This document shows, in pieces, positions 33,001 to 39,000 of a DNA stretch of 42,074 nucleotides. This DNA comes from a virus (Duplodnaviria; Heunggongvirae; Uroviricota; Caudoviricetes). The DNA is taken from the IMG/VR virus record IMGVR_UViG_2913182230_000001, positions 1-42,074 of that record. The stretch is one strand, 5' to 3'. A program made the position numbers. Within the stretch, counting starts at the first letter, position 1, and every line of letters begins with the position of its first letter.

Positions 33001-36000
33001 TCAGAAGTGGTGATGGAGGTTGGTTTCGCCGGTGGCGGCGCATTGCTGGATTTTGCCAGTAACCTGACGGCTACCAGCCTGCTCGGCCTGAGTCCTCAGC
33101 AGACGTATCAGGAGCTACTGGATCTGCAGGAAAGCCGTATCCCCTTCGATGTGGTAACCGGTAAACGGCTGTACAGCAACATGTTGATCCGGGCGCTGGA
33201 AGTGACGACGGACAAGACAACCGAAAACGTCCTGTCCGCCGTCCTCACCCTGAGGGAGGTCATTATCTCCCGGACACAGCAGATTACCGTCGCGGATAAA
33301 ACCAACATGAAGGAAGGGGCCAGCACGTCGGCGGTACAGAATAGCGGCAACAAAACCACAAAGCCTCCAGATACTTCACTGCTGAAAAGCATCACGGGTA
33401 ACGTGGCGTCATTACTGGGGGGCGGCTAATGACAATTCAGGAAATTCCGCTGACAGCGGACAACCAGCAGTTCAGCATCGTCCTGGGTGGTGTTACCTGG
33501 CGGATTAGCATCATATGGCGCGATCTGTACTGGATTATGGACCTGCAGAACGACAGAGGGGTGCCGGTAATCTCCGGTATTCCTCTCGTCACTGGTGCTG
33601 ACCTGCTGGCGCAGTACGCCTGTATGGGGCTTGGTTTTAAGCTGGTGGTGGTCTGTGATGACAACACACAGGATTACCCCACAAAAACTGACCTGGGCGG
33701 TCGCAGCCATTTACTGGTATCAACGGAGTAAGCATGTCACAGAACTGGATGAGACATTTCGAACTGCAGCTTGTGGACGAGAACGGTCAGGGAATTGAGC
33801 TAAGTGATTTTAAAGTCACCTTTACGATCGACTGGTTCAACATCAGCAGCGCGTCCCGGGTAGGGACTATCAAAATTTATAACCTCTCGGCAGATACTGT
33901 GAACCGAATCACCGGGCAGGAGTTTTCGAAAGTGCGTCTGATTGCGGGTTACGACGGTATCGCGCCGGAGGTGTCGGCAAGCGACGTCGGGATCGTGCGG
34001 GAGGTTGATGCGGCGGACGTGGGCCAGAGAGATGGCCGCAACTACGGACTGATTTTCAGCGGTGAAATTCGCTACTCGGTTACAGGAAAAGACAGTCCGG
34101 TTGATTCCTACGTCCTGATTCAGGCAGCAGATACTGATCTGGCTTTTGCCACCAGTATAACCTCACAGACGCTGGCTGCCGGTTACACGGTCGCTGATGT
34201 GAACCGTGCGCTGATGAAAGACTTCGAAGCCAAAGGTGCGACCGAAGGCCTGACGCCTGAAATGCCTGCTACTGTATTCCCCCGGGGGCGGGTGCTCTTT
34301 GGCATGACGCGGCATCTAATGGATAACGTAGCCGGGCAATGTGGCGCAACATGGCAATTCGTGGACGGTCAGCGCCAGATGGTGGCGACTAATGAATATG
34401 TTCACGAAGCGATTGTGCTCAACAGTGCTACCGGGCTTATTGGCATGCCGCAGCAGACCATCGGTAACGGCGTAAACGTCCGTGCGCTCATTAATCCGAA
34501 CATCCGGGTTAATGGGCTCATTCAACTGGATCAGGCTTCTGTATATCGCACCGCGTTGTCGAACAACGATATCGCTATGGCTGGTGGGCAGATCACCGAC
34601 CAGAACACGGACGGAAATATTACGCTCAGCGGCACCACATCACAGCCTGCCAGCATCGCAACGGATGGCGTTTATATTGTGCGCGGGATTATGTACACTG
34701 GCGACACAAGGGGCCAGGCGTGGTACATGGATATGATGTGCGAAGCGCGTGGCGCGGCGGATCTGTATACGCAATCGGCTTTGCAAAGGGGATGAGCAAT
34801 GAGGGGGATTATTTTTCTGTTAGCTGTCTTTTCTGCGTGCAGCGCGTGGGCGGATGGCTTCACGGTTAAATGCGGTGGCTACACTATGGTTGCAAACCAG
34901 GGCGAGTTATCGACAATCAACGGTGAAAGAGTTACCTCTCAAAAAATCACCGAACTGGGTACCAATGGTTTGAAAGTAGACATGGGGCTTATGCCTGCCA
35001 AAGACGGTAACAACTACGGCTTTGAATACATTCGTCGCCCTGGTACCGAAACGCGATTCCTTAATGTCCAGCTTCTGCAGAACAGCATGGATGCGCCTAA
35101 AATCATCGGATCATTCCCTTGTAAAAAAGTGGCTGGGTGAAGGTAACCTGAAATTCGTAACGCCTGAAAAACAACAAAATGTGCTCTAAAAACTGTTGTT
35201 TTTTGAGACGAGCGATTACACTGCACTGACTTTTTGATGGTGGATTGCCATCGATATGCTACTTCATTAAAGCCAGGAATAACTAAAACATGAGTTTAGC
35301 GCAGCCAAAATCAGGAGAACTGTTAGATCTTCTGACTCCTTCATTAACTAAGGGTGAAAACCTTCTGAGTGAGTTTGAAATCCATCGAATCATTCGTGAA
35401 GCGAAGAAACTACCTGAACGTTATCAGGGGCTATCAATTGAAGGCTTAGCTAAGCTTGTTCTTGGTGAAATAGATGAAGGATGTTCACTCTGTGAGCGGG
35501 GGTTGAGAATAGCGCCTAACGATCCAGTTTCTTTTTGTAACTATACGATTGCGCTGCGTAACTTAGGTTTGCACGCTCGCCAGTATGTGATGATTCAGAA
35601 AGCATCTGATTCACTTAATCCAACGATATTGGCTGAGGTTGCTACAATTTCTGCATACTGGGTTGATATCGATTTGCTTGAAAAGGTGATGCCGATGCTA
35701 ACTGCAATGGAAGTACCGCGCCCTGAATATATGGGCAAATGGTATGACACGCTCAATTATCTGCATACCCAAAAAGATCATGCTCAGGAGCTAAAAACTA
35801 TTGGGCGGCTCATGATGAACGTTGCAGAAAAGTACCGCGCTCGTCTTGCTGGCGCTCATGCTTTTTATGTAATGTCAGAACTTGATACGCTGTTCGTTGA
35901 AGTCAAAACAGACGATCCAGTGCTTCTTTCGCAGATGAATAATGCCTTGGCTGATGAGATTATTATTGCGGGGCTTGCGGATTCAGAATGCGTCGGATGC

Positions 36001-39000
36001 TTTGAAGCCGGGGAACTCTAATGTCGGTTGAGCATACCTGTTTTCTTGAATTAGCTAAGCATTCCCTGGCTCTAAACGGTGAGATGTGGACGAGAAATGC
36101 TATTAGCCGAGCATACTATGGTATGTACCATTCCGCCTTACGGATCACCAACAATCTGGTACCGACCGCTACACAAGATGGTGAAAAACTAAAAGGTGGA
36201 GTTCACATGCGAGTCTATACGGCCTTTTGTAGTGGTGAGGCAGCTGCACTTAACGATGTTGATGTTAACGCAGTAAAGAAAATCGGCGTTAAACTGAAAA
36301 TGACGCATGCCCAACGTGTTAATTCTGATTACAAGCTTGAGCGGAAAATCAACCGGATTACCGCGAGAAGTGTAATTCTGGATGCGGAAGAGGTCGATGC
36401 AATCGTTAATCAATTACTGAAGATTGGTGATGACTCGTTAACTGCATAAGCTGAAATTTCTCAAAATTCAAACCCGCCGCTTGGCGGGTTTTTTGCTTTC
36501 TGGAGCCTACTAAATGGCAGTATCTGACCAGACCCGCAGCGGCGACCTTGCCGAAACATTTAAATCTGAACGGGAAACAACAAAGAACCAGATCCGTGTC
36601 GCCTTGCCTGGCATTGTTCAGTCATTCGCTCCTGATGCGGTGACGGCGGTTGTACAGCCTGCTATCCGCTACGTTGAAATTGATAACGACGGCAACCGCA
36701 TTACCAAAAATTACCCATTGCTGGTGGATGTGCCAGTGGTATTCCCGCGCGGCGGAGGATGTACGCTAACGTTCCCAGTTAAAGCCGGTGATGAATGTTT
36801 GGTGATTTTTGCCGATCGTTGTATTGATTTCTGGTGGCAGAGTGGCGGGATACAGGAGTCGGTCGATGACAGAATGCATGATTTATCGGATGCGTTTTGT
36901 ATTGTCGGTCCCCAGTCGCAGGCAAGGAAGATTAGCGGTATTAATACCAGTGCCACACAGTTGCGTAGTGATGACGGCAGCACCTATTTTGAGCTTAATC
37001 CTGATACCAGGAAAATTAAAATTGTCGCTCCGGGGGGCCTTGATGTGGTTGCCCCTCTGGCTGATTTTTCTGAGAAAGTAACCATTCATGGCCTGTTAAC
37101 CTGGATGGGGGGCATGGTGGGGTCTGTGGTTTCTGGTGTGGCTTCAAAAATCACTGGTGCTGTTGAGTTTTTGGGGAGCGTGAAGGCTAATGGCAAGCCA
37201 ATCGATGATACGCACACTCATGGTGGTGTTCAGCGCGGTGGAAGCAATACCGACGGAGTAAACTGATGCGATACAGACGTGAAGACGCCGATGGCGATTA
37301 CACCTTTGGCAGCGGTGATGACACCTGGCTGATTAACTCACCGGAGGCCGTGGCGCAGGCGGTAAAAACGCGATTCGAATTGTGGTATGGGCAATGGTTT
37401 CTCGACACCACCGAGGGGACTCCGTGGATCCAGTCCGTACTCGGTAAGCAGAAGCCGGAAACCTACAACCTAGCGATCCGTAAGCGCATCCTCGAAACGC
37501 GGGGCGTTAAATCAATCCTCTCTTTCAATACGACGGTGGATACCACGACCCGACGTGTCATGTTTTCCGCTGAAATCGACACTCTTTATGGAATAACGAC
37601 TGTTACATCGGAGGCGTAATGGCTCTGAACCTTGATTCTCTCGGTTTATCTGCAAAGGTAACCGCGGAGGGGATCAGTGCGCCTGATTATCAGACGATAC
37701 TCAGCACCCTGATTAGCTATTTTCAGCAGATTTATGGCAGTGATGCCTACCTCGAACCGGACAGCAAAGACGGCCAGATGGTGGCTCTGATGGCGCTGGC
37801 GATTCATGATGCCAATAATACGGCGATAACTGTCTACAACTGTTTTTCACCGGCAACCGGCTATGGGGCTGCACTGACCAGTAACGTGAAAATAAATGGT
37901 ATTTCACGTAAAGGCGCGACGAACTCTACGGTTGATTTGCTTCTTACAGGAACTGCCGGGGCAACCATCATTAATGGCAGCGTGAAAGACAGTAATAATG
38001 TGATATGGCGTTTGCCTGCTTCAGTGGTGGTCGGCGTGGATGGTACAGTGATGGTGACCGCAACATGTTCCGTCAGTGGTGCAGTGGCGGCGCTGGCTGG
38101 AACTATCACTGAAATTAATACGCCAACCCGTGGCTGGGTTTCGGTAACCAATCCTGCTGCAGCTACTGTAGGCACTCCAGCAGAAACTGATGCGGAGTTA
38201 CGTATCCGCCAGTCGCAAAGTGTTGCGTTGCCATCAATAACCCCATTTGAAGCACTGGATGGTGCCGTTTCTAATGTTACCGGTGTAACCCGCCACAAAC
38301 TCTATGAAAACGATACTGGTTCGGAGGACGGTAACGGGTTACCGCCACACTCTGTTGCTGTAATTGTGGATGGCGGTGATGTGACGGATATTGCTCAGGC
38401 TATCAGAGGGAATAAAGGCCAGGGGACAGCCACTCACGGTACAACATCCGTTACGGTTCCGGATAAATACGGCAATCCCCATATAATCAAATTCTCGCGT
38501 TCCAGTGATGTGCCTGTTTATGCCCGGATTAAATTAAAAGTTTTTACGGGTTATACATCACAGATAGGTCAGCAGATCCAGCAGGCTATTTCCGACTATA
38601 TCAATAGTCTGACGATCGGTGATTCGGTCCTTTTAAGTCGCATTTACTCACCGGCGAATCTTGGCGTGGTGAGTGGCGGGAATGCACGCTATTACGATAT
38701 TCAGGAACTGACGATTGGTAAATCCCCGGGGGCTTTGTCGTCATCAAACATTGATATCAGATATAACGAATCTGCGTCCTGTACCCCGGAAAATATCGTT
38801 ATAACGGTGGAGTCATGAGCAAATACACCGAACTAATCACAAACTACCACGCCACCAAACCTAAATTTCTTGCGCATGTTGATCTGATGACCCGGCCACT
38901 TATTGATGTTGCGGCCGCCACCAGAGGGCTGATTACTGCATTTGATATTGACTCTGCGGTTGGTGTGCAACTTGATATTCTGGGATTGTGGATCGGACGT

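Follow-up and report, generated by a model that had tools for sequence, protein, structure and literature searches.

Positions 1 to 42,074 of the IMG/VR record IMGVR_UViG_2913182230_000001, the stretch of 42,074 nucleotides that was analysed here and is called the window throughout, are an Escherichia coli prophage in which a lambdoid early region is joined to a SEN34-like myovirus structural module. The subject of this work is a pair of small overlapping genes, here named A and B, which lie in that structural module between the baseplate hub gene and the membrane-puncturing spike gene. Judged by homology with related prophages, the segment 35141-36469 that carries the pair is cargo of the 'moron' kind, exchanged horizontally at a recombination hot-spot that extends from the STY1065-family gene to the spike gene of this lambdoid/SEN34-like myovirus prophage, and the pair itself is most likely a new variant of the HEPN-based toxin-partner or abortive-infection systems. 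An earlier sequence-only reading had taken the two genes for an autonomous and uncharacterised accessory cassette, a candidate toxin-antitoxin or defence system and not a part of the virion; the sharp boundaries of the hot-spot, the HEPN fold of protein B, the conservation of the pair far beyond this phage and the purifying selection acting on both genes all support it. The features of the region are as follows.

33734-34795, + strand: baseplate hub gene, conserved left flank (phrog_196 baseplate hub, PHROG E = 6e-89)
34799-35140, + strand: STY1065/STY2022-family gene (RefSeq name; phrog_3443), 113 amino acids (aa) with signal peptide; variable, left slot boundary
35141-36469, no strand assigned: variable cargo segment, the whole swappable unit of the hub-spike hot-spot, from sibling-homology breakpoints (43.0% GC)
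35171-35204, + strand: stem-loop of A and T only, followed by a T-run, within the cargo segment; weak and of doubtful function
35290-36021, + strand: gene A, 243 aa, TPR-like helical solenoid plus C-terminal beta-beta-alpha-beta domain; proposed partner, neutraliser or sensor of B
36021-36449, + strand: gene B, 142 aa, stand-alone HEPN-fold protein of AF0298/UPF0332 (HEPN-T) type; proposed RNase effector or toxin
36470-36496, + strand: intrinsic terminator, conserved phage backbone; right-hand slot boundary
36514-37266, + strand: gene for the membrane-puncturing spike, the conserved flank on the right (spike N-terminal domain in Pfam, E = 1e-42; GpV apex motif; RefSeq annotation)

An exchangeable cargo segment between the hub and spike genes

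Both open reading frames (ORFs) are on the + strand, and a single base is common to the stop codon TAA of A (36019-36021) and the start codon ATG of B (36021-36023), so that the two coupled genes and the TAATG overlap described by the sequence-only reading were found as described. On the 5' side of the cassette the order is baseplate plug gene, hub gene and then the STY1065/STY2022 gene, and on the 3' side it is spike gene, sheath initiator gene and baseplate J gene. The placement of the cassette between hub and spike is supported on both flanks by PHROG and Pfam matches, but the gene at 34799-35140, which stands between the hub gene and the cassette, had been missed. The AT-richness noted before is also real, given that the variable segment has a GC content of 43.0%, below that of the hub gene (54.3%) and of the spike gene (50.5%), and that GC at third codon positions is lower as well (0.38 in A and 0.41 in B versus 0.61 in the hub gene and 0.49 in the spike gene); among equal-sized windows the GC content of the segment falls at the 8th percentile.

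The slot boundaries were mapped by homology to 11 sibling phage or prophage loci that carry other cargo. The left breakpoint falls at 35127-35142 in 10 of these 11 siblings, where the STY1065-family gene has its stop codon, and earlier, at 34755, in the remaining one (locus L013), while the right breakpoint falls at 36467-36472, the first base of the terminator stem, in 10/11 and at 36514 in Yersinia phage YP3. Because sibling homology stops and resumes at these edges, the swappable unit was taken as 35141-36469. Most sibling prophages with flanks about 95-98% identical to those of the window are without A-B or have unrelated genes instead, and the comparison of the hub-spike junction with related prophages, which the sequence-only reading had suggested, revealed shared flanks, interchangeable cargo and sharp boundaries. 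Among 5,426 complete E. coli genomes, the flanking genes are present in 353 and the whole region in only 32, and this exact cargo is found in 33, in 28 of them at 99% identity or more.

The cargo found elsewhere in the slot is diverse. It includes a DUF4282 membrane peptide, a DUF2335 membrane protein, a 138-aa lipoprotein-like protein in SEN34 and, in E. coli O55:H7 CB9615 (L014:1457-2011), a 184-aa membrane protein followed by a 56-aa ORF, the former with a weak match to the PADLOC PycTM effector model (E = 9e-4). Escherichia phage vB_EcoM-689R2 (L001:2931-3443) has a single 170-aa protein of phrog_19013 (unknown function), whose RNNLFH motif looks like a canonical HEPN Rx4H motif; this motif is the one sign of a HEPN protein there, with no support from Pfam or the PDB. 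In E. coli DETEC-P80 (L008:1608-2598) a 190-aa protein is followed by a YafO-family type II toxin, and toxin-type cargo therefore does use the hub-spike slot. Three further diverged variants of the A-B pair also occupy it, one of them (L011) with 30% identity to A and 48% to B, and the other two (L013 and L015, the latter from EPEC E2348/69) with B proteins that are 29-30% identical and an A undetected by BLAST. Compared with the PADLOC models, none of the slot variants gave a match better than E = 1.6e-4. We also observed that an intact B-like ORF at L012:2287-2670 (NZ_CP025251, E. coli BH100) is unannotated in RefSeq.

Protein B has a HEPN fold and an invariant residue set

Protein B has the four-helix up-down bundle that defines the HEPN fold, its helices 2 and 3 spanning residues 21-43 and 82-104. 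A profile search of the PDB with B returned AF0298 as the sole match, at E = 0.11 and with both conserved blocks in register: 'ISRAYYxMYH' of B aligns with 'STAYYAMFHAA', and 'R99-xxx-D-Y' with 'R-EES-D-Y'. Twelve residues (E21, R25, S29, R30, Y32, Y33, H37, H62, L92, R99, D103 and Y104) are invariant in 13 pair-associated homologues of B, some of which are mutually just 26-30% identical, and nine of them (E21, R25, R30, Y32, Y33, H37, R99, D103 and Y104) remain so in an alignment of 48 sequences whose members are only 24-47% identical to B. H62, which belongs to the insert separating helices 2 and 3, is kept in 13/13 of the smaller set and in at least 90% of the larger one.

These positions alter the view of the active site that was taken from the sequence alone, in which R-x6-H served as a HEPN-like RNase signature. 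R30 and H37 are real and invariant, and B is indeed a HEPN-fold protein, but the two residues lie in helix 2, where they form a signature shared with AF0298, and not at the canonical motif position, which in B is held by the invariant R99, D103 and Y104. As the HEPN catalytic motif, R30-x6-H37 was accordingly replaced by R99-x4-Y104 together with H62, on the grounds of the AF0298 alignment and of conservation. In AF0298-like HEPN-T proteins and in AbiV the motif histidine is typically lost and the arginine kept, a second conserved histidine from the insert between helices 2 and 3 has been proposed to complete an alternative active site, and a conserved acidic residue is found in helix 2 near the HEPN motif (Anantharaman et al. 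2013). B shares both the fold and the motif pattern of the AF0298-type HEPN-T (UPF0332) proteins, with the arginine kept, the motif histidine lost and the histidine of the insert conserved. Because it has the residue pattern of the AF0298/AbiV class, and because AbiV, which has the same structural neighbours, is a demonstrated RNase, B is probably a catalytically active RNase.

Proteins like B are numerous, since an exhaustive profile search recovered 1,137 clusters (at 50% identity) with E <= 1e-3, although only five of these reached E <= 1e-30. The best 150 relatives are all stand-alone proteins of 45-177 aa, and RxxxDY is present in 146/148 of the top relatives. As a further observation on annotation, the B-like gene of Klebsiella phage ST405-OXA48phi1.3 (MK416008, L018:about 3995-4390) is annotated as two short coding sequences, with one frame open throughout.

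Protein A, a probable TPR-like scaffold

Protein A consists of a TPR-like solenoid (approximately residues 7-181) and a C-terminal beta-beta-alpha-beta domain (residues 186-240), and its helical middle appears TPR-like, as had been proposed. A Foldseek search against the PDB gave generic TPR matches only, and neither an enzyme fold nor a match to a nucleotidyltransferase family or fold was found in family libraries and fold searches. The alignment of 14 members of the A superfamily has no invariant residue at all, and conservation reaches 80% at just two positions of the C-terminal domain, N217 and F238. For these two reasons, the want of invariant residues and of an enzyme fold, A would be a binder or sensor, and it resembles a binding scaffold more than an enzyme.

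The CxxC pairs at both ends of the protein had been taken for a zinc-binding site. The cysteines do occur in this protein, but they are not conserved among its homologues: in a comparison with 24 of them C234 alone proved invariant, other residues standing in for C65, C68 and C237, and no cysteine of A is conserved across the superfamily. With three of its four cysteines varying among close homologues, a CxxC...CxxC zinc site was rejected.

The pair is kept together in many settings

Of the 43 IMG/VR loci that have a relative of B, 40 gave a match to the A profile directly upstream of it, the stop codon of A overlapping the start codon of B. Among the three exceptions, one locus (L037) starts too near the contig end and two (L061 and L062) have a diverged TPR-like gene of 260-270 aa at that place. 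Reference genomes were scanned for B with a profile made from a 20-sequence alignment, which yielded 23 loci from Citrobacter, Serratia, Yersinia, Xenorhabdus, Proteus, Shewanella, Idiomarina, Paraburkholderia, Methylococcales, Thiotrichaceae and Magnetococcales. All 23 have a same-strand ORF directly upstream of B, whose end overlaps the start of B or lies within 4 nt of it; this ORF is of about 250-290 aa in 21 loci and is recognised by the A-superfamily profile in 18. The two genes are thus adjacent across Gamma- and Betaproteobacteria and in a Magnetococcales genome, and two pairs each are present in Serratia sp. M24T3 (L065, about 4 kb apart) and in a Magnetococcales metagenome-assembled genome (L071, directly in tandem).

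The two proteins also diverge together, their identities co-varying across loci with a Spearman rho of 0.74, and A is the less conserved partner in 78/78 comparisons (mean identity of 21.8% for A versus 36.2% for B). Purifying selection acts on both genes in comparisons of close alleles, with omega values of 0.04-0.17 for A and 0.00-0.09 for B. Between some alleles (L044 and L049; the window and L064) the dS values of A and B are discordant, for example 0.07 versus 0.51, which points to recombination within the cassette and to partner swapping among close alleles.

The settings of the pair are equally varied. It is found in the hub-spike slot, including backbones in which the hub protein has an identity of only about 50%; between the tape-measure and distal tail genes of siphoviruses (Lelliottia, Idiomarina, L052 and L054); with the lysis cassette on one side and the terminase genes on the other (L055); within Klebsiella phage Chronis, in its early region; and, in a P2-like Vibrio phage, between portal/late-control-B and the replication gene A (gpA), which flank the old/tin anti-phage hot-spot in P2 (Rousset et al. 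2022). In L061 it comes directly after a cI/LexA-like repressor gene, in L062 and L077 it adjoins integrases, and lone insertions among housekeeping genes were seen beside alaE (L007), dus (L073), an aminotransferase and a dehydrogenase gene (L083), and fliF (L076). A virion role is excluded by this occurrence in siphoviruses, near cI and integrase genes, outside tail genes and in non-phage loci, and the distribution, as far as gene neighbourhoods indicate, is what would be expected for an autonomous toxin-antitoxin or abortive-infection module.

Comparison with known systems

Pfam, NCBIfam, PADLOC and PHROGs hold no named family for A or B, the PHROG families concerned being of unknown function, and in the searchable literature no description was found of the A-B pair or of the hub-spike slot of SEN34-like prophages; that the pair is uncharacterised, and that neither protein resembles a virion component (no virion-family match in Pfam or PHROGs), had been rightly supposed. 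The supplements of DefensePredictor (PMC13092281) likewise contain neither A-B accessions nor B-family motifs.

The layout is that of a type II toxin-antitoxin system, with two small, adjacent and co-oriented genes that are translationally coupled and conserved as a pair. In the HEPN-MNT (type VII) systems, such as SO_3166/SO_3165, the partner is a minimal nucleotidyltransferase (MNT), whereas here it is the TPR-like A; without an MNT partner the pair does not belong to that type, and neutralisation by AMPylation is not expected given that A has no enzyme fold and no invariant residues. A functional precedent for B is AbiV of Lactococcus, with which it has structural neighbours in common (AF0298, TT1696 and the sacsin HEPN domain). 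AbiV is a proven rRNA-cleaving RNase, an abortive-infection toxin, an anti-phage system and part of a toxin-antitoxin system of type III, and its functional R and H residues are in a flexible segment between the core helices (10.1101/2024.05.05.592566). It differs in having 201 aa and an RNA antitoxin, while B has 142 aa and an upstream protein-coding gene, and B is not a member of the AbiV family, as no AbiV model of PADLOC matched it. An RNA antitoxin of the AbiV kind was also considered for the pair and rejected, because gene A is under purifying selection at the protein level (omega as above).

Other HEPN systems resemble the pair in part. RnlA-RnlB and LsoA-LsoB likewise combine a HEPN toxin with a protein antitoxin, for which phage T4 Dmd is a counter-antitoxin, but RnlA and LsoA are large multidomain toxins with the canonical motif and a downstream antitoxin gene, and they have no sequence relationship to A or B. 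In LA2681 (with TPR) and AbiU2 (with Sel1 repeats) a HEPN gene is coupled to a repeat-protein gene, as in A-B, and these operons are predicted to act in conflict systems (Anantharaman et al. 2013); both are listed with a conserved Rx4-6H whose histidine B lacks, and they are set apart from A-B by description. DS-28 of DefensePredictor, a validated two-gene system of E. coli, also pairs a small HEPN nuclease with a partner of about 250 aa of unknown function, but its gene order is reversed, its motif is the canonical RNSVAH, its partner is not TPR-like, and it is unrelated to A-B. As for the slot, the defence hot-spots of P2-like phages and P4 satellites show the same combination of a fixed site, sharp boundaries and interchangeable cargo (Rousset et al. 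2022), and they differ from it in location, the present one lying between the hub/STY1065 and spike genes.

Proposed function and alternatives

We propose that the pair is a toxin-partner or abortive-infection module in which B would be the RNase effector and A its neutraliser or sensor, a reading that we hold to be evenly balanced between right and wrong. Its central element, that B is the active effector of a toxin-partner pair, appears somewhat probable from the comparisons above, and its consequence, that the pair gives anti-phage protection, is put forward more tentatively, as a possibility slightly short of even. In this model B would be a dimeric HEPN RNase with an active site of the AF0298/AbiV type, composed of R99, D103 and Y104 at the end of helix 3, E21 and R25 at the start of helix 2, and H62 of the insert between helices 2 and 3. 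A, translated just ahead of B from the overlapping codons, would bind B and hold its putative toxicity in check; it would also be the input element, the trigger being the binding of A by a phage protein or the loss of A in infection. The freed B would then cut cellular RNA and halt translation, so that the infection would be aborted and the lysogen population protected.

Several results weigh against this proposal. At the end of helix 3 the canonical HEPN Rx4-6H is missing, the sequence of B being R99-V-N-S-D-Y104 with no histidine, and with that residue absent B could be non-catalytic. PADLOC-DB 2.0 gave no significant match, the weak ones being those of B with HEPN_IX (E = 0.009) and of A with PDC-M71B (E = 0.038). 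Most type II antitoxins carry a DNA-binding domain, whereas A is without one, and family and profile searches found no match to helix-turn-helix, ribbon-helix-helix or AbrB-type domains. No A-B fusion protein occurs among the top 150 relatives, and the omega analysis of close alleles gave no sign of gene-wide positive selection on A. In the same slot Yersinia phage YP3 (L002:3109-3909) has an orphan A-family gene of 266 aa (E = 4e-9 to A of phage Chronis) with no B after it; A could on this evidence have a function independent of B, and the YP3 gene could be either a decayed system or a free-standing neutraliser. Among the other cargo of the slot, the YafO-family toxin is the sole recognised toxin-type gene. 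Lastly, the cassette sits within the late structural operon and a sigma-70 scan of 34500-36800 returned no promoter match, so that expression of the cassette in the lysogen is putative; by eye, only a poor TTGATG-15 nt-TATGCT candidate was seen, and a promoter belonging to the cassette itself was discarded.

The pair could also be a selfish addiction module and nothing else, persisting by post-segregational killing or by hitch-hiking in the hot-spot and giving no protection against other phages. In architecture and distribution it is like a toxin-antitoxin pair, it occurs in tandem or duplicate copies and as lone insertions among housekeeping genes, a YafO-family toxin-antitoxin pair uses the same slot, and known defence systems are not co-located with the pair in the loci examined, all of which would suit such a module. 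It is, however, repeatedly found in accessory positions of temperate phages that are expressed in the lysogen (the P2 old/tin flanks, after cI), and many toxin-antitoxin modules in such positions prove to be anti-phage, according to a general statement in PMC10440598. Addiction and defence are, besides, not exclusive roles, and addiction as the only one seems unlikely to us. Another possibility is a function that serves the phage, with expression alongside the late genes or from an incoming phage and with action on the RNA of host or rivals or on host immunity (takeover or counter-defence), where A alone might neutralise B-type toxins of resident prophages. The persistence of the pair outside phages among housekeeping genes, its location right after cI or integrase genes, which are typical lysogen-expressed positions, and the near-constant company of A and B make this explanation improbable.

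The doubt over the canonical histidine leads to a further alternative, in which B would be a non-catalytic HEPN-fold binder of RNA or nucleotides and A a TPR adaptor or chaperone, the two forming a regulatory or assembly-assisting pair. Non-catalytic binding accounts poorly for 9-12 residues, nearly all polar or aromatic, that are invariant across sequences only about 25-30% identical, among them one acidic residue, a pair of arginines and one histidine at the predicted alternative active-site positions; AbiV, which shares the structural neighbours of B, is moreover an active RNase, and a chaperone for tail parts would not occur near cI, integrase or metabolic genes. We see little prospect for this explanation. 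Finally, the location between the hub and spike genes is the only point in favour of A and B being lineage-specific components of the baseplate or tail, or tail assembly factors. That interpretation is effectively refuted and was rejected: most siblings with about 95-98% identical flanks do without the pair or have unrelated genes, the pair is found in siphoviruses, away from the tail genes in a P2-like phage, and also in loci outside phages, and no virion or structural family matches either protein.

The toxin-partner or abortive-infection module is a sound candidate for experiment, although not a surprise in kind, as many such candidates exist. If it were confirmed, the HEPN-based immunity and toxin modules would be joined by a two-gene system of broad distribution (about 1,100 clusters of B-like proteins at 50% identity), a handle would be gained on the AF0298/UPF0332 class of HEPN proteins, whose altered motif has left catalysis in doubt, and a common family of E. 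coli and Salmonella prophages would have a new cargo slot that could be mined for further systems. Being small (about 1.3 kb) and of E. coli origin, the cassette is easy to test. We consider it rather doubtful, yet conceivable, that the pair is the founding example of widespread minimal, nucleoside-triphosphatase-free immune modules, in which a fast-evolving TPR protein would directly recognise a phage protein and release a HEPN RNase working with the non-canonical active site of the AF0298/AbiV type, and that the slot is a new defence hot-spot of the kind known from P2 and P4; in that event the DUF4282 and DUF2335 proteins, the 170-aa RNNLFH protein and the 184-aa membrane protein found in the slot would also be worth screening.

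Hairpins and neighbouring genes

The cassette had been described as bracketed by a stem-loop with a T-run upstream and a strong terminator downstream. The upstream stem-loop (35171-35204) is present, but its folding is not significant: it consists entirely of A and T with a 17-nt loop (dG -10.4 kcal/mol, z = -1.5), 18/200 shuffled sequences fold equally well, so that it is no better than chance, and it is absent from the calls of the terminator scan. The downstream hairpin (36470-36491, followed by a T-run) is a good intrinsic-terminator match in the same scan, with a 9-bp stem that includes 6 G-C pairs (dG -15.7, z = -2.9), but it is not the cassette's own. Because homology with siblings that carry other cargo resumes at the first base of its stem (36467-36472), the terminator at 36470-36496 belongs to the phage backbone; it was found with every cargo type in the sibling comparison, its sequence being visible in L012. 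It lies in the late structural operon, directly before the spike gene, and may both insulate the transcription of the cargo and serve as the right-hand boundary for recombination.

The STY1065/STY2022 protein (113 aa, signal peptide MRGIIFLLAVFSACSAWA) varies among relatives from 27 to 100% identity to the copy in the window, while the hub protein of the same relatives is mostly 88-99% identical, and about 48% in the most diverged backbones; where the hub protein is still 95-97% identical, the STY1065 protein is down to 56-72%. This gene may be a second diversity locus, possibly encoding a periplasmic exclusion or host-interaction factor. At the far end of the window, after the tail-fibre assembly gene, positions 40821-42074 on the - strand hold a 417-aa multi-pass membrane ORF of 32.8% GC with no Pfam match, whose start codon lies at the window's very end and which is probably another acquired accessory gene.

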